From: a virus
Lineage: Duplodnaviria > Caudoviricetes
Virus record (IMG/VR): IMGVR_UViG_3300031673_000001
Length of the DNA stretch: 64,000 bases
Strand: one strand, 5' to 3'
Below are positions 6,832-29,494 of this stretch, piece by piece. The notes below the pieces were generated by a model that was not told the origin of the DNA, searched no databases, and saw only the letters and a program-made list of their open reading frames with translations. A program made the position numbers and the translations under genes. Within the stretch, counting starts at the first letter, position 1; every line of letters starts with the position of its first letter.

Positions 6832-6902
6832 GATAAATAAAATGATAAATAAAATGATAGATCCAATTACAGAATTTATGTTAAAAGTTGAGGTAAATAA
6901 TC

Positions 6903-7440: not shown

Positions 7441-7455
7441 TCTATATATATTAAT
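7441..7455 (+). promoter_or_regulatory. phage promoter-like motif TCTATATATATTAAT (copy 1 of 4)
   Basis: identical 15-mer also at 9097, 21680, 21848, always intergenic and same orientation. Confidence 0.6.
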
Positions 7456-7536
7456 AATTGAAAAGGAAGATTTATAACTATTTTTTTGATTATTCCGATA
7501 TCATATGAAAGGAGAACTAATTTTTGAATTTCAGTT

Positions 7537-9096: not shown

Positions 9097-9111
9097 TCTA
9101 TATATATTAAT
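9097..9111 (+). promoter_or_regulatory. promoter-like motif TCTATATATATTAAT (copy 2)
   Basis: exact match, 30 nt upstream of ORF 9141. Confidence 0.6.
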
Positions 9112-9140
9112 TACCGAATAGGCAAAACAACTTTAACAAT

Positions 9141-11229: not shown

Positions 11230-14200
11230 ATGAAAATAAAATTTCTCGATATTAATAAGTTTATAAGAGGATTAAAACCCGTTACAACTGCTGAATTTAG
11301 AACTAGAGCTGGAGAATTTCATCCGGATGGTTTATTTAGTGAAAAGATATTTGGAGTTGAAAATTCTAGGGAAAGATCTCAAACTTATTCATATATAGAA
11401 CTCCATACGCCAGTAATCCATCCCGCAGCTTTTATAATCTTTAAAAGAATTGATAAAAAACTAATTGATTTCTTTTCAACTGAAAAACTTTTCACAATTC
11501 AAAATGATGGATCATATTTTGAATCTGAAAAGGGGGTAACAGGAATCAAGGAGTTTATTAAGGCGTTTCTTAATTTAAACTTTAAAGGGGGCACACCTGC
11601 TCGAGAAGCTTTAATTAAAGTTCTAAAACAAGGTGGTAAAGATGGGACATTATTCATTGATAAAATTCCAGTTATACCACCCGAACTTAGACCTGCATAC
11701 GAAGATGAGAATAAACGATGGATTATTGATGAACTTAATACTGTTTATACTGGTCTAATAAGAAAAGCAACTCAAATAAAAGGTGTTGGAAAATCTGGAG
11801 CATTATTTGATCTTCTAAATTATAATTTACAGTTAGCTGTTAATTCGCATGATGCATATATACGCACAAAAATTTCTAAAAAGCATGGAATAATTAGAGA
11901 TAAAATGTTGGGAAAGAGAGTGGATTTTTCAGCTAGAGCTGTTATTACTCCTGGTCCAAAACTAAAAATTAATGATGTGGGTTTGCCTGTTAGAATAGGA
12001 GTTATTTTATTTGAACCCTTCATTATACATTACATGCTTTATTCTAAAAGATATCCTAGATATGCAGAATTAGAAAATGAAATTAGAAATTATACTGATT
12101 CAGAACTATCAGTTGATACAATAAAAAGAGTTATGAAAGGAATTAAAGATGATGATAAAATTCCAGATCTCTTATATGAACTATTATTTGAAGCGTGTGA
12201 AATTGTAATGAAAGGCAGGGTAGTAATATTAAAACGAGATCCTGCACTACATGATGGTTCATATAGAGCATTTAATCCAGTATTAACAAGAGGATCAACA
12301 ATAGAAATATCAACAATGCAGGTTGGTCCATTTAATGCTGATTTTGATGGAGATCAAATGGCGGTTTATCATCCTCTTTCTCAACAAGCACAAAAAGAAG
12401 CTAGAGAAAGAATGATGCGAGGAGTTGGAAGTAAAAGCTCAAATGCAACCATGTTTGAAATTTCAAAGGAGATGAGTTTAGGAGTTTACTTGATGACCAA
12501 AGATACTAAACTAAAAACCTCTCCAATAGCAGTAACACTTCAAGATTTAGAAAAAGCAAATAATCCTTTTATTCCTGTTAGATTTAGAGGACATAATACA
12601 ACAATGGGAAGAGCTATAATAAATTCTGCTTTTCCTTCTGATTTTAAATGGATTGATGGTCAAGTCACAAAGAAAATTATCAATAATTTAATTCCTGAAA
12701 TTATTGATAAGTATGGAGATGATACTGCAGCTAATATTTTTACAGATATAAAAAATGTGGCATTTAAATTTGCAACCATCGGAGCTTCATCAATAACTCT
12801 AGATATGCTTGATATTCCTGATAGTATATTAAAATTGAAAGAAAAACTTACAAGTTCAACACCAGAAGAAGCACAAAAATTATTGAAAGAAATGGAAATA
12901 ATATTAAAGAAACATTTAAAAGATACAGGTTTGTATGAATTAGTTGAATCTGGTGCTGGAAAAGGATGGGATCAACCCATGCAGATTCTTGTTGCTAAGG
13001 GTATTATTGCTGATACAAGTGGTAAACTGCTTGAACCAATTAAAGGATCATTTTCAGATGGATTGACAAATATAGAATATTTTAATGCAGCTGGTGGTGC
13101 TAGAAAAGGAATGGCAGATAGAGCTTTAAATACTGCTACAACTGGATATTTTACAAGACAACTTGTCTATGTATTGTCTCCAATAGAAGCACATCCTACT
13201 CTAAAAGATTGTAAAACAAAACGAACAGTTCAATTAAGATTGACCAATGATCTTATTAAAAGAATGACTGGACGATATATTATCAAAGGTAGTAATGTAA
13301 TTCCATTTAAAAAATCAGACTATAATATAGGAGACGTTGTTAATTTAAGAACTTCTATTTATTGTGAATCTTATAAATTATGCCATACCTGTTATGGAGA
13401 TTTATTAAAACGACACAAATCTCCTTATGTTGGAGTGCTAACAGGAGCATCAATTGGAGAACGTGGCACCCAGTTAATTATGAGAACATTTCACACTGGT
13501 GGTGCTGTTAATATAGTTGTTCGAGATATTTTATCTGATATTATTGATAACGATCCATTGATTGAAGCATCTAAACAAAAACTTGGTCAATATTTAGAAC
13601 AACTAGATGATAAATTAATAGCTAAAAAACAGTGTAATATAAAAATTGATTTATCAACATATGAAGTGCAGAAATCTTATTTAATTGACGACGATAAAGA
13701 TTATGTTTGGTTTAATCATCTCATATCTCAAATAGAATTTGATGATATAATTTTTAATATATCTCTTGATTATCCAGTCCATTTATTTAAACAAAAATTT
13801 CAAAAAATTGGAAAAGAAACATTGACCTTTGATTATTCTGTTGGAGATACAATGATGGAAACACCTTTACAAACAACAGAAATTAAAGAAGAGGTAAATT
13901 ATATTAACAGATTGATTGGAGGTCGAGTAGTTTATAAAGATCCAAGTCATTTGTTACTAAAGGTTTTGAAAGTATATGGTGGTTCGGTATCCGATTTAGA
14001 TTTATGCTATTTTGAAGTATTATGTTCACAGGTATTAAGAGATAGAAAAAATGAATCATTGCCTGCAAGAATGGGAAAGACTTGGGATCCCGTAATGATG
14101 AATATTAAAAGCACAGTATTTACTACAGGTTTTATTCAAGGATTAGCTTTTGAAAATATAAATAAAGCTATTGATACAGGATTGGTTTCTGAACAGGATC

Positions 14201-14253
14201 TGCCTCCATCAATATTAGAGAAATTGGTAACAGGAGAGGAATTAAGGAAATGA
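11230..14253 (+). CDS. rpoC: DNA-directed RNA polymerase beta' subunit (set 1)
   Basis: PDGLFSEKIFG, LGKRVDFSARAVITP, RDPALH, FNADFDGDQM, RKGMADRALNTATTGY, TQLIMRTFHTGG. Confidence 0.95.
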   Translation: MKIKFLDINKFIRGLKPVTTAEFRTRAGEFHPDGLFSEKIFGVENSRERSQTYSYIELHTPVIHPAAFIIFKRIDKKLIDFFSTEKLFTIQNDGSYFESEKGVTGIKEFIKAFLNLNFKGGTPAREALIKVLKQGGKDGTLFIDKIPVIPPELRPAYEDENKRWIIDELNTVYTGLIRKATQIKGVGKSGALFDLLNYNLQLAVNSHDAYIRTKISKKHGIIRDKMLGKRVDFSARAVITPGPKLKINDVGLPVRIGVILFEPFIIHYMLYSKRYPRYAELENEIRNYTDSELSVDTIKRVMKGIKDDDKIPDLLYELLFEACEIVMKGRVVILKRDPALHDGSYRAFNPVLTRGSTIEISTMQVGPFNADFDGDQMAVYHPLSQQAQKEARERMMRGVGSKSSNATMFEISKEMSLGVYLMTKDTKLKTSPIAVTLQDLEKANNPFIPVRFRGHNTTMGRAIINSAFPSDFKWIDGQVTKKIINNLIPEIIDKYGDDTAANIFTDIKNVAFKFATIGASSITLDMLDIPDSILKLKEKLTSSTPEEAQKLLKEMEIILKKHLKDTGLYELVESGAGKGWDQPMQILVAKGIIADTSGKLLEPIKGSFSDGLTNIEYFNAAGGARKGMADRALNTATTGYFTRQLVYVLSPIEAHPTLKDCKTKRTVQLRLTNDLIKRMTGRYIIKGSNVIPFKKSDYNIGDVVNLRTSIYCESYKLCHTCYGDLLKRHKSPYVGVLTGASIGERGTQLIMRTFHTGGAVNIVVRDILSDIIDNDPLIEASKQKLGQYLEQLDDKLIAKKQCNIKIDLSTYEVQKSYLIDDDKDYVWFNHLISQIEFDDIIFNISLDYPVHLFKQKFQKIGKETLTFDYSVGDTMMETPLQTTEIKEEVNYINRLIGGRVVYKDPSHLLLKVLKVYGGSVSDLDLCYFEVLCSQVLRDRKNESLPARMGKTWDPVMMNIKSTVFTTGFIQGLAFENINKAIDTGLVSEQDLPPSILEKLVTGEELRK
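14174..14253 (+). repeat. 3' end of rpoC-1, repeated at 14760-14839
   Basis: about 80 nt direct repeat with 7 substitutions, 6 silent. Confidence 0.9.
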
Positions 14254-14735
14254 TAATTGAAAATTACTTATCTGAAATTCAGTCTACCAAAAAACTATAT
14301 CATATAGCTCAACAAGAATTAGATGGTAAAATAGTAAAACCCAAAATTCCAGAAAATCTTTTTACTAAATTAGGACTAGAGGATAAAACAATTCCAAGAA
14401 TTTCTTTTGCTCCTACTATTAATCAATGTATTACTGCAATAGGAAACAATAGAATTGAAGGATCTATCGAAAAAAGATGGATAGTATTTGAACCCTCTAA
14501 TTATAACACAATTAAAATAATATCAAATAAAGAGTTAATAAGAAGAAAGCTAACAATTGATGCAAAATATAGTGGTGAAATTTGGGTTACATCTACTATT
14601 GAATTTAAAGAAATTGGAGTAATTGAGGTAATAAAGAAAATTAGATTAGCATATGAAATTCAGCTTCCTGGTCACAAAGAAATATCTAAATTTTATCATT
14701 GGAAATATAAGGTCTTAGATGGAGACATAGAATGA
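14250..14735 (+). CDS. hypothetical protein
   Basis: 161 aa; ATGA overlaps on both sides. Confidence 0.65.
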   Translation: MIIENYLSEIQSTKKLYHIAQQELDGKIVKPKIPENLFTKLGLEDKTIPRISFAPTINQCITAIGNNRIEGSIEKRWIVFEPSNYNTIKIISNKELIRRKLTIDAKYSGEIWVTSTIEFKEIGVIEVIKKIRLAYEIQLPGHKEISKFYHWKYKVLDGDIE

Positions 14736-14839
14736 TTAAATTTCAATTATTAACACAATATACAGGATTAGTTTCTGAACAAGATATGCCTCCATCAATA
14801 TTAGAAAAATTAGTAACAGGAGAGGAATTAAGAAAATAA
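14732..14839 (+). pseudogene. 35-aa chimeric mini-ORF: rpoB-1 N-terminus joined to rpoC-1 C-terminus
   Basis: MIKFQLLTQYT (= start of 15278 ORF) + GLVSEQDMPPSILEKLVTGEELRK (= end of 11230 ORF). Confidence 0.85.
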
Positions 14840-15285
14840 TGGATACAGAAACAAAAGTCACAATAAATTTTTTAGATAAAAATCCAATAGGTCTAAAAAA
14901 CTATTTGCAGCATAGATACGCAAAAGAAATAAATCAAATAATGCAAAGGTTAACCTCATATTTTAATGAGAGAGTTGATATTCATTATACATTTGAAGAT
15001 CAGGAACCTGTATGGTCTTCTGATTTAGATTTCTATTTAGCAGATAACAAATCTAAATATCCTATTGCAAATGCCGGTAATAGAAAATTACCTGTATGTT
15101 TTGTTATAAATCCTCCATGTTATAAAAAACCAAACTTAGATGAATGGATAATAAAAGATGAGGGAATATATTTAGTTGAACCTTTTAAATCTAAAAAACT
15201 AAAATGGTTATATAAGAAAAAAGTTAATACCATTTCATGGGAACGATTATTTAAGAAATCTTTGGAGATTAACCTATATGATTAA
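14839..15285 (+). CDS. hypothetical protein
   Basis: 148 aa ORF between duplicated rpoC end and rpoB start. Confidence 0.6.
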   Translation: MDTETKVTINFLDKNPIGLKNYLQHRYAKEINQIMQRLTSYFNERVDIHYTFEDQEPVWSSDLDFYLADNKSKYPIANAGNRKLPVCFVINPPCYKKPNLDEWIIKDEGIYLVEPFKSKKLKWLYKKKVNTISWERLFKKSLEINLYD

Positions 15286-18200
15286 ATTTCAATTACTAAC
15301 ACAATATACAAGAGTAGTAGATGGAGTTCGTTTCTTAAAAGAAAAAGATAAACCATTTGCATTATTTTATTTCTCCGAGAATTCAACTCTATATAATGAC
15401 TATCCAAAGATGAATCTAATGAGAATAGATTCTAAATATGTAGTCGTTCCGATAACAAAAATTCCTGTTTCACGATTAACAGGAGATCAAAGAAAGATTT
15501 ATAAATCATTTGGTTTAATTCCATTTCAATCAAATCAAGCATATCCTCCAAACTCAAATATTATATTTGATACAAGTCAGTATGTTTCATTAATAGATCA
15601 AACATATAAACCAACAACATATAGACAAAGAGCAGGATTTCTTCTTAATAACTTTTTTTACAAATCATTCAATTCCCTTCCTAATAATTATCAAAAGGTT
15701 CTAATTTACACTGTTGATATTAATAAACCAATAAATTCGTTTATAAATAGAAAAATATTTCCTATATTAAGAAACATGAAAGAAAATGAAATTTCATTTG
15801 ATCATATGCTTTTAGGATTGGTCGGTGAGACATCAACTAGATATAGACTATTAGTTAAAGATAGAAACTATAAATTTGCAAGAGTTACTCAATATATAAG
15901 AAAAATTAAAATGGTTGATTCAGATGAAGAGAAAGAACAAGATGTTGAATCAGCAACCAACTCATTTGATGAGAAAGATTCTAAAATTAAAACAGCAATT
16001 CAAAACTATCTAAATAAGAATGATAAAGATCTTGAGAAAGTTTCTAATGATGAACTTGATAAAACAGAAAAAGATAGATTGACAATAGCTTCTATCTTAT
16101 ATAAAGTTACAGGAAACTATTCAAAATCTCAAAGACTTGCAAAATCTATACCTGACTCAAACATCAAAACTGCAGTTCAAAAGATAAGTAATTTATATAG
16201 AGATGATTTATTAACAGGTGAAAAAGCTGTTAGTCTTAGTGAGTCGTATATTATTCAAGGAATGAATGTTGGTAAAGCAGTCCAAAATAAAACACCAGAG
16301 CATATATTTGATAAAAGAAGAATCGACTTTGAAACAAATTTGAAAAAAGATATGTCCAGTGCTTTTAAAGTTTTACAAAAAGGAAATGTTCCTATTAAAT
16401 TCAATTCAATTAAGGTTACTAGTAAAATATCAAGACCTGGAGAACTTAAAAAATCAGACGTTGCAATTGTATCTATAAGCGTAACAGATGCTGCAGGAAA
16501 TGAGCAAATAATTGAATTTGAAATTCCTGAGATTGATCCTAACTCTGGAACTTTTAGAGTAAATGGTCAACGTAAATGTTTAATAAATCAAATAGTGTTG
16601 ACCCCTATTAGCTTTCCTAAACCTTATGATTCTAAATTTGAGAGTTCATATTCAAAATTCCATATCTATAGTAGGAAGACCAAGAGATTGTCGTATCTAG
16701 AAGCATACATGGGTTCATTCCGCCTCCCATTGATGATCTTGTTATCATATAGTTTTGGATTTGAAGAAACAGTCAAAAGAGTAGGAATAAAATATAAAAT
16801 TGTTCAAGATAGACCTGAAAAAGATGTAGTTTTTACACAGGTTCCGTCCTCATATATGATATTTGAAGGTTTAGATACTGATTTAAAACGAGAAATGGTA
16901 ACATCATTTACTCATAGTAACATCAGTCAATATAAAAATGATAAAGAATTTTTATCAAAAGATTATTTCATAGATTTAATTATTCAAATGACTGGAAGGG
17001 TTGACTCAACATATTTGATAAATAATAATATTGAATACATTGTTGATCCAGTTTCAAAACAAGTTTTAATCAATCAATTATTACCATATAAACTAGAAGA
17101 TATTATGCACTATATGGCATCTAAAGCTGTTGAAGGTTATGTTCAAGAAAGAAATGATATTCAATATCAAAGAATTAGAAATTCAGAAATTCTAGTTCAT
17201 TTAGCACAAAAACAATTTCTTAAATCATATACTGAATATAAAGAACAATATCTATCAGGAAATAAAGATGCAAAATTTAATTTTCCACCTGGTTCTATAT
17301 TAGGTCAATTTACTAATTTAGAGATTGTTCAAAATATGGAATATGCAAATCCAGTTGAAGAAATGGCAACCATTACAAAAATTTCTCCAGTTGGAAAAAC
17401 TGTTGGTGGAGTTCCTGATAAGGAGGGATTAAATCTTGAAGCTCGAAATGTTCATAGATCATATTTTGGAAATATTGATCCAGTTGATACAGCAGAGGGT
17501 GGTAATATTGGTATAACCCAACAACTAACAGTTGATGCATATTTAACATCTTCAAGAGGACTTTTTGGAATTAAAGATTTAAAAAATGATGAAGGATCTG
17601 GAATACTATCAACGACTCTTTCAATGGTTCCATTTATTGAAAACAATGAAGGTGCCAGACTTATCATGGCAGGAAATCAAGGAAAACAAATGCTGCCCTT
17701 GAAAAATCCTGAACCTCCTATTGTTCAAACTGGATATGAGTCATTACTTTCCAATGTTCTATCTGATAGCTTTATTAAGAGATCTCCATGTGCTGGAAAA
17801 GTATCAAGTATTACAAATGACTTTATTGAAATAAGTTGTAAAGAAAATTCTAAAAAGAAAGTTGATATTACACCAGGTCAACTAAAATCTGGATCTGGAA
17901 AAAATACATTGAGCACATTTAGACCAACTGTGACTGTTGGTCAATCTGTTAAAGATAAGCAAGTAATTGCAGAAGGAGCTTGTATATCTGGAGGAACTAT
18001 ATCATTAGGAAGAAATCTTGCAACATGCTATATGCCATATGAAGGATATAATTTTGAAGATGGTCTTGTAATAAATGAAAGATTAGCAAATGATGATAAA
18101 TTAACTTCCTTACATGGAGTTGATATTGAAGTAAAAATTGATCATAAAGATAGAATTTTACATATTATAGAAATGGGAGCTTATACTAAAAAAGGTGAAC

Positions 18201-19342
18201 CTTTATTAATAAAAACAGCAGGAGATATTGAAGAACTACTGGGTTATCAAGAACAGGAAGAAGAAGGAGTTGATGTATATGAAGGTCAAATTGTTATAAA
18301 AAGTCCAGGAGGACAAGTTGTTGATATTGAAGTATTCTCTAATCTTGATATAGATGATTTTCCTTCTATTAAAAAGTTAGTTAAAAGAACTAACTTAAGA
18401 CATAAAAAACCTGATAAAGATAAATATACAGATAGATCAATTTCAATTAAAGGAATATTAATTGTATTTAAAGTTGAACAAGAATTGAAAATTAGAGTGG
18501 GTGATAAACTCTGTAACAGATATGGAAATAAAGGAATTATTTCATTAATTGAAAAAGATAATTTAATGCCAAGAACACCTTGGGGTGAAACAGTTGATAT
18601 AATTATGAATCCTCTTGGAGTTACAGGTCGAATGAATATGGGGCAAATATACGAATTATACTGTGGTCTTATTTCTAAAGAAGTAGCAAAGAGAATGATA
18701 AAGTTGACCAGACCACAAGGAATTGCATTGATGAAATCTGTAATAACAAAACTTGATAATACAAAAGATAAGAAAATTAGCACATCATTAATTGCTTCCT
18801 TAACTAAAATGAGTGATGGAAAATATAAAGAAATGTTAAGTCAAGTTGAAAAGAATAAATTTATACCAATAGTTATTCCTCCATTTCAATCTCCTAATCA
18901 CAAAAGTATAGCGGAAGTATTAAAATTATTAAAACTAAAAACAGGATATAAATTAAAACTTCCAAAGTATAATACATTGACGCAAAATGAAGTTCCTTTT
19001 GGTTATGAATATGTTTCTAAATTAGAACATCTCGCAGATGCTAAATTACATGCAAGATCAACAGGACCAACAGCAGGAAAAGGAGGACAACCAACTGCTG
19101 GAAAAAGAAAAGAGGGTGGTCAAAAAATGGGTGAAGGTGATACATGGGCGTTAGCTTCTTATAATTGTCCAACAGTATTATCTGAATTTTTTGGTCCTAT
19201 GTCTGATGATTTTGCATCTAAAAATGAAATGTTATCAGAAATTATACAAACTGGAACAACAGATTTTAAGCAAACAAAAATGTCTCCAACTAGAGATCTA
19301 TTAAGTGCATATTTTATTTCATTGATGTTAGGAGGTCAATAA
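15278..19342 (+). CDS. rpoB: DNA-directed RNA polymerase beta subunit (set 1) with about 330-aa N-terminal extension
   Basis: FRVNGQRK, IDPVDTAEG.NIG, EGYNFEDG, GDKLCNRYGNKG, RMNMGQ, KLEH, GGQKMGE. Confidence 0.95.
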   Translation: MIKFQLLTQYTRVVDGVRFLKEKDKPFALFYFSENSTLYNDYPKMNLMRIDSKYVVVPITKIPVSRLTGDQRKIYKSFGLIPFQSNQAYPPNSNIIFDTSQYVSLIDQTYKPTTYRQRAGFLLNNFFYKSFNSLPNNYQKVLIYTVDINKPINSFINRKIFPILRNMKENEISFDHMLLGLVGETSTRYRLLVKDRNYKFARVTQYIRKIKMVDSDEEKEQDVESATNSFDEKDSKIKTAIQNYLNKNDKDLEKVSNDELDKTEKDRLTIASILYKVTGNYSKSQRLAKSIPDSNIKTAVQKISNLYRDDLLTGEKAVSLSESYIIQGMNVGKAVQNKTPEHIFDKRRIDFETNLKKDMSSAFKVLQKGNVPIKFNSIKVTSKISRPGELKKSDVAIVSISVTDAAGNEQIIEFEIPEIDPNSGTFRVNGQRKCLINQIVLTPISFPKPYDSKFESSYSKFHIYSRKTKRLSYLEAYMGSFRLPLMILLSYSFGFEETVKRVGIKYKIVQDRPEKDVVFTQVPSSYMIFEGLDTDLKREMVTSFTHSNISQYKNDKEFLSKDYFIDLIIQMTGRVDSTYLINNNIEYIVDPVSKQVLINQLLPYKLEDIMHYMASKAVEGYVQERNDIQYQRIRNSEILVHLAQKQFLKSYTEYKEQYLSGNKDAKFNFPPGSILGQFTNLEIVQNMEYANPVEEMATITKISPVGKTVGGVPDKEGLNLEARNVHRSYFGNIDPVDTAEGGNIGITQQLTVDAYLTSSRGLFGIKDLKNDEGSGILSTTLSMVPFIENNEGARLIMAGNQGKQMLPLKNPEPPIVQTGYESLLSNVLSDSFIKRSPCAGKVSSITNDFIEISCKENSKKKVDITPGQLKSGSGKNTLSTFRPTVTVGQSVKDKQVIAEGACISGGTISLGRNLATCYMPYEGYNFEDGLVINERLANDDKLTSLHGVDIEVKIDHKDRILHIIEMGAYTKKGEPLLIKTAGDIEELLGYQEQEEEGVDVYEGQIVIKSPGGQVVDIEVFSNLDIDDFPSIKKLVKRTNLRHKKPDKDKYTDRSISIKGILIVFKVEQELKIRVGDKLCNRYGNKGIISLIEKDNLMPRTPWGETVDIIMNPLGVTGRMNMGQIYELYCGLISKEVAKRMIKLTRPQGIALMKSVITKLDNTKDKKISTSLIASLTKMSDGKYKEMLSQVEKNKFIPIVIPPFQSPNHKSIAEVLKLLKLKTGYKLKLPKYNTLTQNEVPFGYEYVSKLEHLADAKLHARSTGPTAGKGGQPTAGKRKEGGQKMGEGDTWALASYNCPTVLSEFFGPMSDDFASKNEMLSEIIQTGTTDFKQTKMSPTRDLLSAYFISLMLGGQ

Positions 19343-20205
19343 TGAACTTATGTGAATATGGTTGTGGACAAGAAGCAAAATATAAAACATCTAATAACAG
19401 ACAATGTTGCAGTCCTAAATTTAATTCTTGTCCAGGAATAAGAAAAAGAAATTCAGAAACAAATAAAATAAAACAGTCAGGAAAAAATAATCCAATGTAT
19501 GGAAGAGAACAAACTATAGAATCTAAACTAAAAAATAGTGAGTCAAATAAAAAAGTTTGGAAAGATAAATCATCAACTTTTAATAATCCTCAATATAGAA
19601 AGAAATTAAAAAAAGCTTTGATAGAAGCATCCAAAAAAAGAAAAAGAACTATTAAAATGCTAAAAGAAAAATATACGCTATTTTCAAAAATTGAAGAAAT
19701 GAGATATAATCCAGATAAACCAAAAGAAAAAGAAATTCAAGTTCATTGTAAAAATCATAATTGTTCAAATTCAAAAGAACAGGGAGGTTGGTTTACACCA
19801 ACAAATATTCAACTATATGAAAGAATAAGAAATGTAGAACACCACGGATTAGATAACTCTTATTACTATTGTTCTCAAAAATGTAAAAATGAATGTCCAT
19901 TATTTAATTTACATTCTGATCCATTTAAAAATAATGAAATACCATATACATCACAAGAGTATCAAACTTTTAGAAATTTCGTTCTTGAAAGAGATGATTA
20001 TAAATGTCAGTATTGTGAAGATTTAGCAACAGATGTTCACCACGAAAGATCACAAAAATTAGAACCATTTTTTGCGCTTGATCCTAATTTAGCTTGGAGT
20101 TGTTGTGAGAAATGTCATTATACAAAAGGTCATAAAGATGAATGTTCAACTGGAGCTTTAGCTAATAGAATTTGTACAGATGGAGTCAATAATGAATGCT
20201 CCTAA
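19342..20205 (+). CDS. HNH endonuclease with NUMOD3-like motif (free-standing homing endonuclease-like)
   Basis: GKNNPMYG..QT.ESK.K.S; VLERDDYKCQYC...DVHH......CEKCH. Confidence 0.75.
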   Translation: MNLCEYGCGQEAKYKTSNNRQCCSPKFNSCPGIRKRNSETNKIKQSGKNNPMYGREQTIESKLKNSESNKKVWKDKSSTFNNPQYRKKLKKALIEASKKRKRTIKMLKEKYTLFSKIEEMRYNPDKPKEKEIQVHCKNHNCSNSKEQGGWFTPTNIQLYERIRNVEHHGLDNSYYYCSQKCKNECPLFNLHSDPFKNNEIPYTSQEYQTFRNFVLERDDYKCQYCEDLATDVHHERSQKLEPFFALDPNLAWSCCEKCHYTKGHKDECSTGALANRICTDGVNNECS

Positions 20206-20707
20206 CTACAAACAAATTGACTTATTAAGAAAAGCAGGTTTAAGACCTGAGGTTGTTGCTTATATTATTAGAGATGGAGAATTTCTATTAACATATTCCA
20301 AAGAACATGATCTCTGGTTTGTTCCTCAAGGTGGAATTGATAATAAAGAAACACCTGAAAAAGCATTATATAGAGAGCTTGGAGAGGAACTAGGAATAAA
20401 ATTACAAAAAAGTTTATATGGAAAACCTGAGTTAATACATTTAGATAAAATAATGTTTACAAGTGGAATTGGAAGCAGAGACTTAAGAACTGACTCTGGA
20501 GAGTCTGTAGTTATGAAAGGTAAATACTATTTACATTATGTAGTTCAATCTACTATTCAAGAAATAGATGTTAGAGATACCGAGTTTGATAAATTAATTT
20601 GGGTAGGAAAAGAGAAACTATATATTGTTCCAAAAATTATAAATGTATCCACAAAGAAAAATCAATTTATAAATGTAATGCCTAAATTGGAAAAATATCT
20701 AACATAG
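20180..20707 (+). CDS. NUDIX hydrolase
   Basis: Nudix box GGIDNKETPEKALYRELGEELG; likely start ATG 20192. Confidence 0.85.
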   Translation: MESIMNAPNYKQIDLLRKAGLRPEVVAYIIRDGEFLLTYSKEHDLWFVPQGGIDNKETPEKALYRELGEELGIKLQKSLYGKPELIHLDKIMFTSGIGSRDLRTDSGESVVMKGKYYLHYVVQSTIQEIDVRDTEFDKLIWVGKEKLYIVPKIINVSTKKNQFINVMPKLEKYLT

Positions 20708-21679: not shown

Positions 21680-21694
21680 TCTATATATATTAAT
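21680..21694 (+). promoter_or_regulatory. promoter-like motif TCTATATATATTAAT (copy 3)
   Basis: exact match upstream of ncRNA unit 1. Confidence 0.6.
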
Positions 21695-21729
21695 AAGTGA
21701 TAATATATGATTTGACTTATTTTTTTCAA

Positions 21730-21830
21730 TTTCTGGGAGGACTTGATATAATTTCAGAACTGTGTAATTACAGTGCCATTAAGGGGATTAAATTCCCTGA
21801 CATTAAATTACATCTTCTGCTTCCCAGAAA
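21730..21830 (+). ncRNA. stem-loop RNA unit 1 (Y-RNA-like array)
   Basis: TTTCTGGGAG/TTCCCAGAAA outer stem, GAC-TT loop, GATATAATTT/AAATTACATC inner stem, TTTCAGAAC, two apical hairpins. Confidence 0.7.
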
Positions 21831-21847
21831 ACATTTAAGAAAAAACA

Positions 21848-21862
21848 TCTATATATATTAAT
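21848..21862 (+). promoter_or_regulatory. promoter-like motif TCTATATATATTAAT (copy 4)
   Basis: exact match; downstream leader (..ATTTGACTT..) resembles that of copy 3. Confidence 0.6.
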
Positions 21863-21895
21863 AGGTGTAATAAAAATTTGACTTGTATTTTTAGT

Positions 21896-22004
21896 TTCCA
21901 AGAAGACTTTATGTAATTTCAGAGCTGATTGGTTCAGCATCTTACTTGAAATGAGACGTGAGGGTTCGATTCCCTATTTTAGTTACATCTATTACTTCTT
22001 GGAA
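21896..22004 (+). ncRNA. stem-loop RNA unit 2 with tRNA-like D, anticodon and T arms
   Basis: TTCCAAGAAG/CTTCTTGGAA, ATGTAATT/AGTTACAT; GCTGA-TTGGT-TCAGC, TCTTA-CTTGAAA-TGAGA, AGGG-TTCGATT-CCCT; no acceptor stem. Confidence 0.75.
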
Positions 22005-22015
22005 TCATTTTTATT

Positions 22016-22089
22016 TGGGGACAATAAAGAGAATTAACTTAATACAAGCGTTGGCCCGCCCGGATTAAATTAGTTCTCTGTCCCCACCA
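22016..22089 (+). ncRNA. stem-loop RNA unit 3, acceptor-like stem ending ACCA
   Basis: GGGGACA/TGTCCCC + A + CCA; inner AGAGAATTAA/TTAGTTCTCT. Confidence 0.6.
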
Positions 22090-22094
22090 ATTTT

Positions 22095-22177
22095 AGATGA
22101 GAAGACTTTATGTAGTTTCAGAAAAAATACAATTGGCGTATTCACTATCTACATATTTTTAATAATACTTCTCATCT
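22095..22177 (+). ncRNA. stem-loop RNA unit 4
   Basis: AGATGAGAAG/CTTCTCATCT, TATGTAG/CTACATA, TTTCAGA, AATAC-AATTGGC-GTATT. Confidence 0.7.
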
Positions 22178-22184
22178 TTACTTT

Positions 22185-22248
22185 TTCAAAAGACTTTATG
22201 TAATTTCAGAACCGATTGAGTTAATGACTTACATATGCTTCTTTTGAA
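22185..22248 (+). ncRNA. stem-loop RNA unit 5
   Basis: TTCAAAAG/CTTTTGAA, TATGTAA/TTACATA, TTTCAGAAC. Confidence 0.65.
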
Positions 22249-22254
22249 TACATC

Positions 22255-22330
22255 TTGTGAGGACACTGGGTATAACAATTTCAATATCATTCGGGGATCA
22301 TTGTTAATTATACTGATATTGTCCTCACAA
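22255..22330 (+). ncRNA. stem-loop RNA unit 6
   Basis: 11-bp TTGTGAGGACA/TGTCCTCACAA, GTATAA/TTATAC, AACAAT/ATTGTT, variant TTTCAAT. Confidence 0.6.
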
Positions 22331-22335
22331 TCTTT

Positions 22336-22394
22336 AATGGACTGAGTGTGATTTCAGAACTCGCAGAGAAGTTTCAATTACACTCAACTCCATT
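22336..22394 (+). ncRNA. stem-loop RNA unit 7
   Basis: AATGGA/TCCATT, TGAGTGTGATT/AATTACACTCA, TTTCAGAAC; followed by T run. Confidence 0.65.
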
Positions 22395-22490
22395 TTTTTG
22401 AAAGGAAAGTAATGAAATTCCTTAAACCAAAAATATTAGATATCATTGCTTTACGTTGGTTGTTAAAAACTAAAATAAAGGAGAAGCTAA

Positions 22491-24014
22491 ATGCCAATAG
22501 GGGAACTGGGAATCATTGATTCGGGAATTTTACAATTCGCCCCGAAGGGAGCTTATTATGAAGAAAAGGATGAACAATATCAAGCAGTTAAAAACATGTG
22601 GATGCAATTATTAGATTACGACAGAACCTTATTCTCTTTAGTAATGTTATTAAATGGCACTGGTTTCTCTAAAGGAGCTATGAGTCACATCCTATTATCA
22701 AATAGTATAAAGAATGTGAATAATCTACCAGCAATTACAGATGGATTACCAGAAGAATTTGAAAAGGAGATTATTAGATATAATCTCTATAAAGAGAGAA
22801 CACCAAGAGCATTGAAAAATCTATTAATGTTGGCAGGGGAAGAAGGACATAAAAAAATAAATAATTCAAAAACCAGAAAAATTATTTTGGAGTTCATCTT
22901 CAATCGAGATAATAAAAGTCTTGATTATCTTGCTGTAAATTATAAGATTAAACTTCAAAAACTAATTAAACATGCTCTTGGAAAGCAAGATCTCTATAAA
23001 ATTTTAAATGGAAGCAATAGTGATACTATATTTAGAAAAAATATTGGCAGATACAATAATCATTCTTTTCCAGTTGTATGCCATATATTCAATAAACCTA
23101 TTCCTTCCGGAACTTTCTTTCCAATGATTCAAAAGTATTATGAACTCAAAGATGCAGCAAAAATTGGAAATCTTGTTGAATTTAGAAAGCATATGAAAGG
23201 TTTTCCAGAAAGAACCGTTATGGGAATGAGAAATTTATATAAACTTGATATTCCCATATCTGATATAAAGAATGATACCCAGAAATCAGAGAAAGATAAA
23301 ATTCAAGGAATAGCAGCAGCAAAACGAGCTGGTGCAAAGAAAGTAGATATTAATTATAAAAAACAAGATATCTATGATCTATTCAAGCTTCTATATTTTA
23401 AACTCAACACTAAAGATGAAGAGGATGTTGATAAAATAATAGAAGCAATGGATTATGTTACAGATAATATGATCAAACTTGATATTGGAGAGTGTATAGT
23501 TATTATGGATGCCTCTCATTCAATGTTTGGAAGTGAAGAAAGACCAATGCATCCATTTTTAACTGGACTGTGCATTATTGCAAACCTCGACAATGTAAAA
23601 GATATAATATATGTTGGAGGACAAGCAATTAAATTTTCAACAATTAATCCAGGAGTTATAATACCAAAGAATTATACAGATCTCTGGAGAGCATTAATTA
23701 AAGCAGTCTCAAAAGGTGTTGAAAATATAGTTATTATTTCTGATGGTTATGAAAATTCTATTAAAGGGATGTTCGGGCACGTATATAAGCATTTGAAGGA
23801 GACAGGATATAATTTTAAATTAACACATCTCAATCCTGTATTTTCAGCTGGATCCTTAACAGGAACCTCAATAAGATTAACAGAGGATGTTAGACCATTT
23901 CCAGTTGGAGATTATAAGTTTCTTGAAACTGAAATAATCTTTTCTAAACTTATCGAAGATAAAGATATGGTTAGAAAATTATTAATATCAAAATATAAAA
24001 GTCTGATTCAATGA
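22491..24014 (+). CDS. Ro60/TROVE-like protein with C-terminal vWA (MIDAS) domain
   Basis: 507 aa; helical basic N-terminal two-thirds; IMDASHSM (DxSxS), YTDL, IISDGYEN; the vWA call is firm, the TROVE call is inferred from size, architecture and adjacent RNAs. Confidence 0.6.
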   Translation: MPIGELGIIDSGILQFAPKGAYYEEKDEQYQAVKNMWMQLLDYDRTLFSLVMLLNGTGFSKGAMSHILLSNSIKNVNNLPAITDGLPEEFEKEIIRYNLYKERTPRALKNLLMLAGEEGHKKINNSKTRKIILEFIFNRDNKSLDYLAVNYKIKLQKLIKHALGKQDLYKILNGSNSDTIFRKNIGRYNNHSFPVVCHIFNKPIPSGTFFPMIQKYYELKDAAKIGNLVEFRKHMKGFPERTVMGMRNLYKLDIPISDIKNDTQKSEKDKIQGIAAAKRAGAKKVDINYKKQDIYDLFKLLYFKLNTKDEEDVDKIIEAMDYVTDNMIKLDIGECIVIMDASHSMFGSEERPMHPFLTGLCIIANLDNVKDIIYVGGQAIKFSTINPGVIIPKNYTDLWRALIKAVSKGVENIVIISDGYENSIKGMFGHVYKHLKETGYNFKLTHLNPVFSAGSLTGTSIRLTEDVRPFPVGDYKFLETEIIFSKLIEDKDMVRKLLISKYKSLIQ

Positions 24015-24023
24015 GGAGAACTT

Positions 24024-24992
24024 ATGTCAATTTTTAGAATATTAAAATTTTCAGATGAAGATATTGGAGCTGGAAGTATTCAGGGTGTAGATGAAATGAC
24101 AGTGGTGCCTCTCATTGGTGAAAATCTAGGTAATGTAGCAGAACCACTTTCATTAAAATTCAAACGAACGGATAGTTATGGTTCCATGGTATATGAAAAT
24201 ACAGATAAGGAACTATCCGGAATTATTCCTACAAACATAATGGTTAGAGGATTTAATGCTCAAGATCATGCAATGGCAGGTTCAGGAATAATTACAGCAA
24301 ATAAAACAACAAAATTCACTAATGCATGCTGTATTGAATCAGGTCAGGGAGGATATCTACAAGATAAAGGTAATGATTATGATATCTTACCAATTGAGCT
24401 TCGTAAAAATCTCTTACCATTAAAAATGAGAGACAAGAATAGATATGATAAATTATGGCCAGACATTTCAAAATGGTTAGCTGGCACAGGAGTTTCTAAA
24501 TCAATAATGCAGTCACATTTAAGATATTTCTATGATAATCCTCAAATAAAGGAATCTCTTGAAGAGTTTTCTGCTTCCTTTGAACCAGTATCTAATCAGA
24601 TTGGAGCTGTCATATTATTTAAAGACAAAGTTGTTGGAATAGAAATTATGCCAAGTGTTCAACATTGGGAAAGTTATTGGAAGTTATTAATTCGAGGATG
24701 TTACGGCGCCGAGTTATTGAGACTTAAAAAACTTGGCAAAATTAATTCATCTCTTAAACTACCAAAATTTAAGAAGGGTGATAAGGTGGAACATCTAGAA
24801 CTAATTGTTGATAATTTTTTACATGATATTAGAAAAGATATTTTACAAATAATAGATAATATTAAAATAAAAAATGCCTCAATATTAAATAAAATTGAGA
24901 ATTTTGAAACTATATTAATAGAAACAGATTCAGGTGGTGGGGATCTTATAACTCAAGATAAAAAACCTATATATCTTTCACTGGTTCTCTAA
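24024..24992 (+). CDS. ARPP-1 (DUF6569)-like protein
   Basis: MTVVPL, IP....VRG..AQDH, ACCIE..Q, FE.V.NQIGAVI......GIE..P pattern recalled for this family. Confidence 0.55.
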   Translation: MSIFRILKFSDEDIGAGSIQGVDEMTVVPLIGENLGNVAEPLSLKFKRTDSYGSMVYENTDKELSGIIPTNIMVRGFNAQDHAMAGSGIITANKTTKFTNACCIESGQGGYLQDKGNDYDILPIELRKNLLPLKMRDKNRYDKLWPDISKWLAGTGVSKSIMQSHLRYFYDNPQIKESLEEFSASFEPVSNQIGAVILFKDKVVGIEIMPSVQHWESYWKLLIRGCYGAELLRLKKLGKINSSLKLPKFKKGDKVEHLELIVDNFLHDIRKDILQIIDNIKIKNASILNKIENFETILIETDSGGGDLITQDKKPIYLSLVL

Positions 24993-25172: not shown

Positions 25173-25289
25173 CGCCCCTGCTATTACGATAGCTTGTGGA
25201 AGATGCTTTTAGTTTTTGATCTTAGTTATTTAATTAACTAGGATTGAGACTAATAGTATCTTCCACAAGCTACCGTAATAGCAGGGGCG
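25173..25289 (+). repeat. long inverted repeat (about 55-bp arms)
   Basis: CGCCCCTGCTATTACG.TAGCTTGTGGAAGAT... / ...ATCTTCCACAAGCTA.CGTAATAGCAGGGGCG. Confidence 0.9.
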
Positions 25290-26974: not shown

Positions 26975-28195
26975 ATGTCAAATGAAAATATTCCAGTCGA
27001 AGAACAGAAATATTACGAGAAACTAAATATTTCAGTTCTTTCAATCAGCAGAATTAAAGAATTATTAAAAGATGATATTAAATCAACAATCATCTCCTGG
27101 CAACAAGGAAGAAATGTTGAAAGACAATGTTATAGAATTATTGGACCAGCTGGCGTTGGTAAGACTCAAATCTGTTATCAGATAGTTGATGAATTAACCC
27201 AAGAAGTAGGTCAAAAATTTCATATTATTATGATCAAAGCTCCCGTTTTATCAAGGGATGATTTTATTATTCCATTTCCAGTTATCGACAATGGAAATAC
27301 AAGATTCAAAATGTTGTATTCGGATTTCGTGCCAGAAGGTAAAGATACCTATGGACTATTTGTTATTGACGAGTGTGGTCGTGGAGATCATGCATTACAA
27401 CAATTATTATGGCAAGTTCAAAATGAATATGCCATCCATAGGTATGAGTTTCCAAAACATTGGTTTGTTATATCAATTGATAATCCAGATGATTCTGAAT
27501 ATTCAATGGATATAATTGAGGATGCTGCAGGACTTCGTCGAAATCTTCATATTTATACAGAGGTTAGTGCAAAAGATTTTCTTGATTATGCAATTCTAAA
27601 TGACTTTCATCCATTTGTAATTGAGTATATTCAAACTCATCCAGAAAGGGTCTATGACTTTCAATCTCAAAAAGTAGGAGCAGTTTACGCCAATCCTGCA
27701 AGTTGGGAAAAGATTTCAGATCATCTATGGAAAATGGAAATAGCTCATGGAAGTATATTATTTGATAAGTTTGAACCCAAATGTTCTGGTTTGATTAATA
27801 CTAATCAAACTAGAATGTTTTTAGAATTTGCAAGAGATAAGAAGGATATTAATCCAAGAGATATCTTTTATAATTTTAATAAAGTTGAATCTCAAATAAA
27901 AGATCTTATTAAAAATAATGATAACTCCAAACTTGGTGAATTAATGATAAGTTTCGGAACTTTTATGGTTACCACAATGCCTAACTATGAAAATGGTAAC
28001 TTAAAGAATGTAATTGAGTTTCTATTATTAATGCCAATAGATACAGCAGCATTATTTATGTCTCAAATAGATCAATATGAAAGAAGCTCAAAAGCATTTC
28101 AATATATGGTAAAACTTCACATTATATTGACTCAAAGATCAAATAAATACAAGAAAGAATTCTATGATCCATTGGTTGGACTTGGACTAGAATAA
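26975..28195 (+). CDS. MoxR-like AAA+ ATPase
   Basis: GPAGVGKT Walker A, FVIDE Walker B, AGLRR. Confidence 0.8.
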   Translation: MSNENIPVEEQKYYEKLNISVLSISRIKELLKDDIKSTIISWQQGRNVERQCYRIIGPAGVGKTQICYQIVDELTQEVGQKFHIIMIKAPVLSRDDFIIPFPVIDNGNTRFKMLYSDFVPEGKDTYGLFVIDECGRGDHALQQLLWQVQNEYAIHRYEFPKHWFVISIDNPDDSEYSMDIIEDAAGLRRNLHIYTEVSAKDFLDYAILNDFHPFVIEYIQTHPERVYDFQSQKVGAVYANPASWEKISDHLWKMEIAHGSILFDKFEPKCSGLINTNQTRMFLEFARDKKDINPRDIFYNFNKVESQIKDLIKNNDNSKLGELMISFGTFMVTTMPNYENGNLKNVIEFLLLMPIDTAALFMSQIDQYERSSKAFQYMVKLHIILTQRSNKYKKEFYDPLVGLGLE

Positions 28196-28216
28196 ACCAA
28201 ATGTAAAGGAGTCAAT

Positions 28217-29494
28217 ATGCCTGGAAATCAAACCGATCAAAGAATAAAAGAATTACTTGCTAAATTTGTTCTAAAGTATGATTATTGGGGATATTTATTT
28301 TCTATAATAAGAAGAAAACCATCTGACAATTTTCCATCTATTATGGGAGTAGCACCTGAAATGGATGGAACAATAACTCTATGGTATAATCCTAAATTAA
28401 CCGATGGAACAAATGATAAAAATATTAGATTAGTTCTTGAACATGAAGGAATGCATTTATTAAATAAGCATGTAGCAAGATTAATAAGAATTCTTTCGGA
28501 TGAGACTGATATTACAAAGTTCCATATAAAAAGAGATTTATGGAATTTTGCAGCAGATGCTGCTGCTAATCAGCAAGCAAAATTTGAGCAAACACTTTGT
28601 ATAAATGGAGAAACCTGGCCATTAATATTTCCAAGTAGTTTAAACCTTCCTGATGGTAAAACCACTGAATGGTATTTTCATGAGCTATTAAAAAAGAATA
28701 AAGATTCAATGGATAAGCTTTCAGAAGAAATGAAAAAAATCTTTAAGATGTTAGAAAATCATTCAGAATGGGGAAAAGGTTTATCTAAAAGTCCAGATCC
28801 AAATTCTTTATCAAGAAAAATTGATAGTTTTCTAACAGATATTATAAAAAAATCTGTTAGAAGTTTTTCAAAAGATAGAGGAAATCTTCCAGCACATATA
28901 CAAGAATTAGTTGAACAAGCATTGGGTCCACCAAAAGTTCCATATTATGCATTAATTAAAAAACTTATTAAAGGAAGCAGACTATCTAAATTCAAAAGAT
29001 CTCACACTAAAGTCAATCGAAAGAGAGGGTATGTATTTATAATTGGAAATAAAGGTATTCCAGAAATATCACCTTTTCCAGGTCGAACTAGAGATTTCAC
29101 ATTTAAGGTGGGTATTGTTATTGATACATCAGGTAGTATGTTAATACAATGGATTGCAGAAGGTCTCTCTGGTGTGAAAAATATATTAGAAAAAGATAGA
29201 CACTGTCATGTTACAGTTATGCAAGTTGATACAGTAATTGAAAGTGAATATCAACCAAAGAAAATTAGAGATATTAAATTTGAAGCAAAAGGTAGGGGAG
29301 GAACATCACTATTTCCTGGTTTGGAAAGATGTAAAGAGTTAGGAGTTGATGTTTGTCTAGCATTTACAGATGGATTTTGTGAAAATATAAATCAAATATC
29401 TAGAAAATTATTACCAAAAAAAATTATTTGGATTCTAACTCCAAATGGAAGTATAAATAACATTAATAAAACTGGATATGTAATAAAGATTTAA
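28217..29494 (+). CDS. DUF2201-type metallopeptidase + vWA protein
   Basis: LEHEGMH, N.AAD..N, IDTSGSM, GRGGT, FTDG. Confidence 0.85.
   Translation: MPGNQTDQRIKELLAKFVLKYDYWGYLFSIIRRKPSDNFPSIMGVAPEMDGTITLWYNPKLTDGTNDKNIRLVLEHEGMHLLNKHVARLIRILSDETDITKFHIKRDLWNFAADAAANQQAKFEQTLCINGETWPLIFPSSLNLPDGKTTEWYFHELLKKNKDSMDKLSEEMKKIFKMLENHSEWGKGLSKSPDPNSLSRKIDSFLTDIIKKSVRSFSKDRGNLPAHIQELVEQALGPPKVPYYALIKKLIKGSRLSKFKRSHTKVNRKRGYVFIIGNKGIPEISPFPGRTRDFTFKVGIVIDTSGSMLIQWIAEGLSGVKNILEKDRHCHVTVMQVDTVIESEYQPKKIRDIKFEAKGRGGTSLFPGLERCKELGVDVCLAFTDGFCENINQISRKLLPKKIIWILTPNGSINNINKTGYVIKI

Follow-up and report, generated by a model that had tools for sequence, protein, structure and literature searches.

What a phage may do with a Ro60-like protein that is encoded side by side with an ARPP-1 protein and just behind a row of small structured RNAs is the question raised by a 64-kb stretch of DNA (64,000 nucleotides, hereafter the window) from an uncultured giant phage (Duplodnaviria; Caudoviricetes; IMG/VR record IMGVR_UViG_3300031673_000001), in which all long open reading frames lie on the plus strand and the GC content is about 29%. 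The source record is an 83-kb fragment with a CheckV completeness of 27%. The gene of the Ro60-like protein (507 amino acids, ATG start) lies at 22491-24014 on the plus strand and, after a spacer of 9 nt (24015-24023), is followed on the same strand by the ARPP-1 gene (322 amino acids, ATG start) at 24024-24992. An initial annotation, made from the letters of the DNA, had described the two open reading frames and the 9-nt gap, as well as the basic helical N-terminal part of the first product and its intact metal ion-dependent adhesion site (MIDAS), and it was right in every detail.

Ro60 has been studied for decades both for its part in RNA quality control and as an autoantigen; it binds the helix of a Y RNA on its outer surface and single-stranded 3' ends in its central hole, and to our knowledge no natural ligand of the metal-binding site on its vWA domain has been identified. 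The ARPP family was defined by Iyer et al. (2022; PMC9503650) as uncharacterised and probably enzymatic; these authors described a Cys and a Gln that are conserved without exception, and suggested ribose-type sugars, or ribose moieties derived from ADP-ribose, as substrates of the family. Phage Ro60 proteins with partner RNAs are already known from the Thermus phage phiLo (PMC12135203) and from mycobacteriophages (Chen et al. 2014, PMC4201824), and a TROVE protein is encoded by a subset of jumbo phages (PMC7824862). In this study we followed the two genes and the RNAs upstream of them through related phage and bacterial loci. We think it moderately probable that the locus encodes a particle of the Ro60/Y-RNA type with a docked ARPP enzyme, which would act on tRNA or on tRNA-like RNA.

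Results

Predicted architecture of the 507-residue protein

Each of the two open reading frames has more than 240 homologues, often on shared contigs, so that both are real genes and chance reading frames are excluded. The Ro60-like protein is also encoded on a 238-kb contig. Among GenBank phages, a DNA similarity search of the window gave nothing, and the protein search gave as its sole match one uncultured 462-kb phage at 27% identity.

The AlphaFold2 model of the protein, built on an alignment of 26 homologues, has a predicted local distance difference test score (pLDDT) of 82 and a predicted template modelling score (pTM) of 0.77. Residues 1-326, encoded at 22491..23468 (+), are all-helical and of HEAT type in this model, and they take part in matches to the full-length Ro60 fold; residues 330-507 are alpha/beta, and the C-terminal vWA domain (residues 327-507, encoded at 23469..24014, +) matches vWA folds with Z scores of 8-9.6. 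The N-terminal part is basic, with 52 lysines and arginines against 41 aspartates and glutamates and an isoelectric point of 9.3, and it holds a conserved motif around N124-N125-x-R127-T-R129-K. The MIDAS consists of D340-A-S342-H-S344, T396 and S417-D418-G419. Since D340, S342, S344 and D418 are invariant in the 26 close homologues as well as in a 24-member alignment reaching 20% identity, the metal site is under selection.

Four structure libraries were compared with the model. The best 12 Foldseek matches in the PDB are all Ro60 chains (Deinococcus Rsr, Xenopus, human and the Thermus phage phiLo), aligned end to end, and the best of them is D. radiodurans Rsr (2nvo, E 7e-6). The exhaustive VIA comparison with 48,161 representative chains is led by three Ro60 representatives (Z 12.2-12.8, 389-410 residues aligned), the first being phiLo Ro60 with a Z of 12.8 over 389 residues, a root-mean-square deviation of 6.0 and about 15% identity; in the rows below Ro60 the vWA domain alone is matched, with Z at most 9.6. 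Five of the top six Swiss-Prot models are Ro60 and the other one is telomerase p80, also a TROVE protein. In the ESM Atlas the template modelling (TM) scores are 0.70/0.74 to a TROVE-named cluster and 0.58/0.57 to a chordate Ro60 cluster, 96% of which carries PF05731. In language-model features, TROVE sets make up 65 of the 100 nearest clusters.

Searches with sequence models gave a different picture. The protein has no Pfam family, its best match at E up to 1 being DUF7720 (E 0.28), and no PHROG family match. PF05731 (TROVE) gave no match anywhere in the 83-kb record, even with E values up to 10 allowed, Pfam searches of ten distant relatives gave no TROVE match, and family profiles from the close and the wide alignments found no Ro60 chain among PDB sequences; the combination of PF05731 with PF25045 (vWA_Ro60), by which a Ro60/TROVE protein is recognised in sequence, was thus not found in the 507-residue protein. 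The Ro60/TROVE-like label of the initial annotation is upheld in one half, since Foldseek, VIA, Swiss-Prot and ESM Atlas point to the architecture by predicted fold, and fails in the other, the TROVE sequence models. With four independent structure libraries in agreement, and the language-model features agreeing as well, the modelled protein is a very diverged Ro60-like one by its architecture, namely a putative helical ring followed by a vWA domain. Structure prediction against Ro60 and Rsr had been put forward as a check of this assignment, and Ro60 ranks first in all libraries.

The ARPP-1 partner and the gene pairing

The second protein, formerly labelled as ARPP-1-like, turns out to be a genuine ARPP-1. 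It matches Pfam ARPP-1 (PF20208) over residues 18-236 with 73.5 bits (cut-off 27) and an E value of 2.5e-20, and 120 of 120 homologues among the matches listed carry PF20208. Its AlphaFold2 model (pLDDT 89, pTM 0.88) shows the beta-meander core and the inserted barrel of the ARPP family fold, and the 30 best AlphaFold DB cluster matches are mostly ARPP-named entries or fusions (best E 4.7e-35, TM 0.85). No relative of the model was found among solved structures, for which the best Foldseek E value is 0.047 and the best VIA match (Z 5.9) spans a 42-residue meander alone. C103 and Q108 are invariant in 19 ARPP-1 sequences down to 25% identity and form a putative active site; further invariant columns include Q80-D81, R127, F186-E187 and R224.

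A profile search of 1.8 billion representatives gave 438 members of the Ro-like family at E <=0.001, and 22 viral loci together with 80 cellular ones from a scan of bacterial and archaeal genomes were surveyed. In 21 of the 22 viral loci the ARPP-1 gene lies directly downstream of the Ro-like gene, and in the remaining one it lies 1.9 kb upstream; this pairing holds for Ro-like proteins with as little as 23% identity. The cellular loci hold ARPP-1 in 59 cases, the sister family ARPP-2 in 18 and neither in one, and two are cut by a contig end. Altogether, 99 of the 100 evaluable loci couple the Ro-like gene with one for ARPP-1 or ARPP-2, and the pairing is obligate. The cellular carriers belong to Planctomycetota, Myxococcota, Actinomycetota, Ktedonobacteria, Bacteroidota and others, with Minicystis rosea DSM 24000, Roseiconus nitratireducens JC645 and species of Stieleria, Novipirellula and Actinomadura among those in culture.

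In one locus (L001) the two parts are fused in a single protein of 884 amino acids (P0379), which is the sole fusion to stand; a search for longer fused forms of 1237-3530 amino acids found none. A reading frame of 901 amino acids in Actinomadura (L080) was rejected as a fusion, as it has no Pfam match, the true hits are in a different frame, and the open frame that encloses ARPP has 374 amino acids. Other apparent fusions in high-GC actinomycetes were withdrawn as spurious long reading frames of loci with 70-75% GC.

A second Ro-like subfamily is partnered by ARPP-2 (PF22549) and occurs in loci L051, L054, L055, L057-L059, L061-L063, L065, L066 and L068, with more cases in L073, L075-L077, L088 and L095. 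These ARPP-2 partners keep an F-E..xxQ(I/V)G motif but are without the invariant cysteine.

Predicted docking of ARPP-1 on the vWA domain

Prediction of the complex between the Ro-like protein and ARPP-1 gave a score of 0.64, against 0.00 for the best control. Of 80 solved complexes, 58 come up to the mark for this score, as do 2 of 110 mismatched pairs; these counts calibrate only roughly, since self-supplied alignments were used. Three runs share at least 97% of the contacts, with a partner pLDDT of at least 87. The predicted interface takes in residues 342-344, 393-397, 418, 420-427 and the next helix on the vWA side, that is to say the MIDAS face, and residues 18-29, 184-190 and 244-266 of ARPP-1, the second of these segments holding the invariant F186-E187. 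In the predicted complex, ARPP-1 thus sits on the MIDAS face. Ligands of vWA domains are classically held by an acidic side chain that completes the coordination of the MIDAS metal; from this mode and from the position of segment 184-190 in the predicted interface, E187 would be the obvious candidate for a MIDAS ligand. The F-E motif seems absent from a Haliangium ARPP-1 that has a kinase gene, and no Ro-like gene, next to it, by a weak alignment (probability 47%). A hidden Markov model of the Ro-linked ARPP-1 proteins missed the copies that are not Ro-linked, so that this comparison of the motif rests on one weak profile alignment. ARPP-1 had been pictured at first as an effector tethered to RNA, and here the complex prediction speaks otherwise, tethering it to protein at the MIDAS face.

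The upstream RNA array

Directly upstream of the Ro-like gene, at 21730-22396, the window holds an array of five units that share a two-helix handle, with two rod-like hairpins of another type among them. The handle consists of a closing stem, an internal loop (GACU(U) on the 5' side and ..UAC on the 3' side) and a second stem that is followed by UUUCAGA, for which the consensus across relatives is U(U/A)CAG. We built a covariance model, R1, from the short handle units. Unit 1 (21730..21830, +; R1 match 21734-21826, 34.2 bits, E 1.8e-5) folds with -31.8 kcal/mol (z -4.0) and carries, besides the handle, a tRNA-like insert that is reduced and includes a T-like hairpin. Unit 2 (21896..22004, +; R1 match 21899-22001, 51.2 bits) is a tRNA look-alike in its predicted fold, with a D arm, an anticodon arm and a T arm that contains GGTTCGATTCC, and is without an acceptor stem; Rfam gives a partial tRNA match at 21923-21975 with 25 bits (gathering score 29), and ARAGORN calls no tRNA in it. 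Unit 3 (22095..22177, +; R1 match 22098-22174, 34.9 bits) and unit 5 (22333..22396, +; R1 match 22334-22396, 48.9 bits) are likewise given by R1 match and predicted fold, and unit 4 (22185..22248, +; 63.2 bits, E 3.9e-13, z -3.6) is minimal, consisting of the handle and a short hairpin. The two further hairpins are a rod-like one ending in ACCA at 22016..22089 (+; -27.7 kcal/mol, z -5.8), which has no R1 match, and another one at 22254..22331 (+; -24.7 kcal/mol, z -4.8), both belonging to a second, non-handle RNA class.

Covariation was examined in 18 short units drawn from the window and from 10 related viral loci, 11 sources in all. The 15 base pairs of the handle are paired in 91.7% of cases, against 68% after shuffling and 35-49% with a slid partner, and 14 of the pairs vary on both sides, which supports both helices. 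Over 552 kb, R1 gave 49 matches at E<0.01, all of them on the plus strand and directly upstream of the Ro-like gene, from 13 sources (the window, L003 and L005-L015); within the window its matches are the five array units alone. Adjacent small RNA genes closed by a stem, at least one of them tRNA-like, as expected for RNAs of the Y type, are therefore present at 21730-22396, and the earlier view of the locus as RNA array, Ro-like protein and ARPP-1 is borne out in its composition: the RNAs are structured, they carry a covarying handle, they lie directly upstream, and the trio recurs. One related locus (L002) gave a weak partial YrlA match of 29.6 bits, against a gathering score of 69.

tRNA mimics and tRNA arrays in relatives

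In other phages and in bacteria of the Planctomycetes, the nearest 'tRNA' called by ARAGORN upstream of the pair is enclosed by a handle of the same type. A search for similar arrays at bacterial loci had been suggested at the outset, and handle-type RNA is found upstream of the pair in Planctomycetes, where the Ro-like protein at the handle-bearing loci is about 25% identical to that of the window. The handle-borne tRNA body has the normal D-anticodon-T order, and in L005, L007, L010, L011 and L013 the handle encloses a complete cloverleaf in this order, often with an encoded ACCA 3' end. That the handle is kept between phage and planctomycete RNAs whose proteins have diverged this far is the best available evidence, although indirect, that the Ro-like protein may recognise it.

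In nine Pirellulaceae genomes (L028, L030, L031, L034, L035, L036, L039, L043 and L045) the handle-borne mimic lies about 265-495 nt upstream of the Ro-like gene and is near-identical except for the anticodon loop, with TAG, CTT, ATT, ATG or TTT as its triplet. With the anticodon triplet as the most variable site, diversification of the loop is suggested, and a role in decoding fits poorly. A tRNA-Cys (GCA) gene was also observed upstream of the mimic in L028, L030, L031, L034, L035, L036, L039 and L040, at a distance of mostly about 20 nt and of about 350 nt in L040, a conserved local order.

True tRNA genes are abundant around the pair in many relatives. Arrays of 15-38 tRNA genes surround it in eight loci of Myxococcota, Planctomycetota and phages, with 38 genes in L027, 32 in the phage locus L021, 24 in L036, 20 each in L025 and L049, and 19, 17 and 15 in the others; in Minicystis rosea the 38 tRNA genes lie within 9.3 kb. 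Taking at least 20 tRNA genes at a density of at least 2 per kb to define an L-type tRNA gene array, L027, L021, L036, L025 and L049 hold one. Over all loci the density is 0.30-0.35 tRNA genes per kb, roughly thirty times that of a typical bacterial genome. As mimics are the partner RNAs and relatives of the pair lie in tRNA arrays, the context favours tRNA biology over general RNA decay, which had been proposed at first next to counter-defence and RNA repair as a possible role.

Other features around the module

In the close clade the RNA array is preceded by the RNA polymerase beta gene and two small genes and followed by the Ro-like gene, ARPP-1, a long hairpin and two more conserved genes; in the window the RNA polymerase beta' and beta genes, each a single open reading frame, lie at 11230-19342. 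An AT-rich 20-mer precedes unit 1 at 21680..21699 (+; TCTATATATATTAATAAGTG) and unit 2 at 21848..21867 (+), and two other intergenic copies are found at 7441-7460 and 9097-9116 (+). The motif (TCTATATATATTAATA followed by 4 nt) thus has four copies, all intergenic and all on the plus strand, where 0.06 are expected by shuffling; it is probably a promoter and a candidate for recognition by the phage's own RNA polymerase. A scan for sigma-70 promoters and terminators gave 29 sites against 23.5 expected.

After the ARPP-1 gene, a near-perfect hairpin of 117 nt lies at 25173..25289 (+; -83 kcal/mol). Long hairpins take the same position in L003 (about 6736-6860, also -83 kcal/mol), L006, L008, L010, L011 (about 6676-6800), L012 and L015, several of them beginning with a motif like CCACAUAGUGG. 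The hairpin closes the unit and could serve as a site of processing, mark where the transcript ends or be one more RNA of the system; Rfam matches of it to miRNA precursors are spurious.

Between RNA polymerase beta and the conserved small genes, at 19342-20707, lie a gene for an HNH endonuclease and, overlapping with it, one for a NUDIX hydrolase. Both were rejected as parts of the system, for they are absent from all related loci and hence are local insertions. A second vWA-type pair, 3 kb downstream at 26975-29494, is made up of an ATPase gene (PHROG 1297) and, behind it, a gene that encodes a DUF2201_N putative metallopeptidase domain and a DUF2201 vWA-like domain; no test linked this pair to the module. 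In L002, the region 4044-4660 upstream of the RNA array resembles by eye the zinc-finger end of a TnpB/IS605 OrfB remnant.

RtcB, which had been reported as missing from the window, was likewise not found in the 83-kb record (27% complete), nor was RNA_ligase (PF09414); RtcB or RtcA alongside, as in an Rsr-YrlA-RtcBA operon, is thus not seen in this record. ADP-ribosylglycohydrolase (ARG, PF03747) was found neither in the record nor among the ten neighbouring genes, an absence that holds for the neighbourhood only, since the record is 27% complete. The neighbours from whose context ARPP was named, ARG or a rhodanese-phosphatase, do not occur in the neighbourhood.

Discussion

A proposed ribonucleoprotein module and the points against it

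The reading that we prefer takes the two genes and the RNA array upstream of them as one ribonucleoprotein module of the Ro60/Y-RNA type. The Ro60-like protein would bind the two-helix handle of the small RNAs, which in most relatives bears a tRNA look-alike. ARPP-1 would be held at the MIDAS face by the segment with the invariant Phe-Glu and would serve as the catalytic subunit, using its invariant Cys and Gln. The ring and the RNA may then select or present a substrate, on whose ribose or RNA end ARPP-1 would act, and we infer that the purpose may be tRNA surveillance, repair or protection during the conflict between phage and host.

Several points weigh against this reading. As no sequence model matches, the kinship with Ro60 rests on predicted structure and language-model features, and helical repeat proteins can score a Z of about 13 in VIA from their arrangement alone. 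The docking is itself a prediction, and we know of no ARPP for which an enzymatic activity has been demonstrated. Shared chemistry is uncertain where the partner is ARPP-2, which is without the invariant Cys. On the RNA side, Rfam YrlA and Y_RNA have no match in the window, and the handle is unlike the GNCGAAN0-1G motif of bacterial Y RNAs. As to tRNA, ARAGORN finds no tRNA gene in the 64-kb window, where an L-type array is accordingly not found, and in the far actinobacterial branch there is at most one tRNA gene per locus, none of them directly upstream.

Alternative explanations

The alternative that survives best, although we judge it unlikely, sees in the pair a handling factor for pre-tRNA, with the handle as the paired leader and trailer of the precursors of array tRNAs; the Ro-like protein would protect or fold them or time their maturation, and ARPP-1 would process or modify their ends, releasing or marking the tRNAs. 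The complete cloverleaf enclosed by the handle, often with its ACCA end, and the position of the pair inside arrays of true tRNA genes both agree with this, as does the finding that YrlA of M. smegmatis is itself cleaved by RNase P and CCA-tailed (PMC4201824). However, many handle units are without a tRNA body, including four of the five in the window, and the enclosed 'tRNAs' bear anticodons that would be odd for decoders (ATG, ATC, ATA, AAT, ATT and TTA), with the triplet varying most among the near-identical Pirellulaceae copies. Moreover, the one or two ordinary array tRNAs that come next upstream in L017 and L034 are without the handle.

Quite improbable, in our estimate, is a classical Ro60/Y-RNA adaptor for a host exoribonuclease in the style of Deinococcus Rsr-Yrn1-PNPase or of phiLo, in which the tRNA-like modules would tether the host polynucleotide phosphorylase (PNPase) or another tRNA-binding enzyme and ARPP-1 would be a non-catalytic accessory or regulator. 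The Ro60 fold and the adjacent RNAs with tRNA-like modules are what such an adaptor would have, and phiLo Ro60 with Yrl1 and Yrl2 binds and attenuates the host PNPase (PMC12135203). Against it stands the ARPP partner itself, which accompanies nearly every evaluable Ro-like gene and is found in none of the characterised Ro60 systems; in addition, the invariant Cys/Gln constellation of ARPP-1 is typical of an enzyme, and the family is widely spread on its own as a two-gene unit.

A function independent of RNA, with the vWA domain as a peptide-binding chaperone, ARPP processing sugars derived from ADP-ribose and the RNAs as unrelated cargo of a tRNA region, would accord with the co-occurrence of vWA and ARPP in ARG-centred NAD/ADP-ribose systems, with the ribose proposal for ARPP (PMC9503650) and with the NUDIX gene 1.8 kb upstream in the window, but it is very unlikely, given that no ARG gene was found in the 83-kb record, that NUDIX and HNH are insertions peculiar to the window, that the N-terminal 326 residues show in the model a Ro60 ring fold and not a bare vWA domain, and that the handle RNA stays directly upstream across phages and bacteria at a protein identity of about 25%.

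Comparison with known systems

Returning to the particle with a docked ARPP enzyme, its nearest counterparts are bacterial Rsr with YrlA/YrlB or Yrn1 (Salmonella rsr-yrlBA-rtcBA; Deinococcus Rsr-Yrn1-PNPase; Chen et al. 2014, PMC4201824). Shared with them are the ring and the vWA domain with its MIDAS, the neighbouring small RNA genes, the terminal stem, the tRNA-like module and a link to tRNA damage or repair. Unlike these systems, the one described here is without the TROVE sequence signature, its handle reads GACU ... UNCAG ... UAC and not GNCGAAN0-1G, its obligate partner is ARPP instead of RtcB, RtcA or PNPase, and the window holds five handle units and two other hairpins in tandem. The tRNA body of YrlA runs in the order T-acceptor-D, whereas the handle-borne body here runs D-anticodon-T, an orientation that resembles Deinococcus Yrn1 (PMC4201824). 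The phiLo system (PDB 9L5Y; PMC12135203) likewise joins a Ro60-type protein of a phage to partner RNAs of the phage, and its protein was recognised as homologous to Ro60 although the sequence identity is limited; an ARPP partner is not reported for this system, whose protein was shown to work via the host PNPase.

With the ARG-centred ARPP systems (Iyer, Burroughs, Anantharaman and Aravind 2022, PMC9503650) the second protein shares PF20208, the Cys and Gln and the predicted fold, and vWA domains were noted in those neighbourhoods too. Here, however, ARG, rhodanese-phosphatase, HIRAN, WYL and deacetylase partners are missing, and their place is taken by a Ro60-like ring-vWA protein and RNA genes. 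A third point of contact is with the long tRNA arrays (2021, PMC8421152; Tran et al. 2015, PMC4758250), since relatives of the pair lie within arrays of 15-38 genes, whereas the window holds tRNA mimics and no true tRNA array. Such arrays spread horizontally and respond to translational stress, and HNH endonuclease and RNA-repair genes are known neighbours of L-type arrays (PMC8421152).

A search of the two tRNA-array papers (PMC8421152, PMC4758250) for vWA or von Willebrand found neither, the library search that returned these papers counted no TROVE, Ro60 or Rsr in them, the word TROVE is absent from the text of Iyer et al. 2022 (PMC9503650), and a full-text literature search for ARPP together with TROVE, with most subscription journals outside its coverage, gave unrelated papers only. 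From these negatives, the obligate pairing of Ro-like protein and ARPP, the new handle and the setting in tRNA arrays appear undescribed within that coverage.

Implications for Ro60-type proteins and the ARPP family

A bolder form of the proposal, which we put forward as a doubtful possibility, is a tRNA-directed conflict machine that has not been described before. The ring would display mimics with fast-diversifying anticodon loops as baits or guides for enzymes directed at the anticodon or the acceptor end, and the ARPP-1 held at the MIDAS would repair, mark or trap the damaged RNA or the attacker, being in this case a new RNA-end or ribose-modifying, or cross-linking, enzyme. Were this so, a Ro60-type MIDAS site would for the first time have a natural ligand, and the ARPP family an activity.

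What is in hand, apart from this bolder form, is a three-part module of a Ro60-like protein, an ARPP and small tRNA-mimicking RNAs that recurs in about 100 phage and bacterial loci. An obligate, enzyme-like partner predicted on a Ro60-type MIDAS site offers a testable hypothesis for the purpose of this site, and for ARPP, whose constant companions are a presumed RNA-binding ring and tRNA mimics, the substrate can now be sought among RNA ends or riboses. Long tRNA arrays, which spread horizontally in bacteria and giant phages, gain a recurring protein component in this module, and the cultured bacteria among its carriers are open to genetics.

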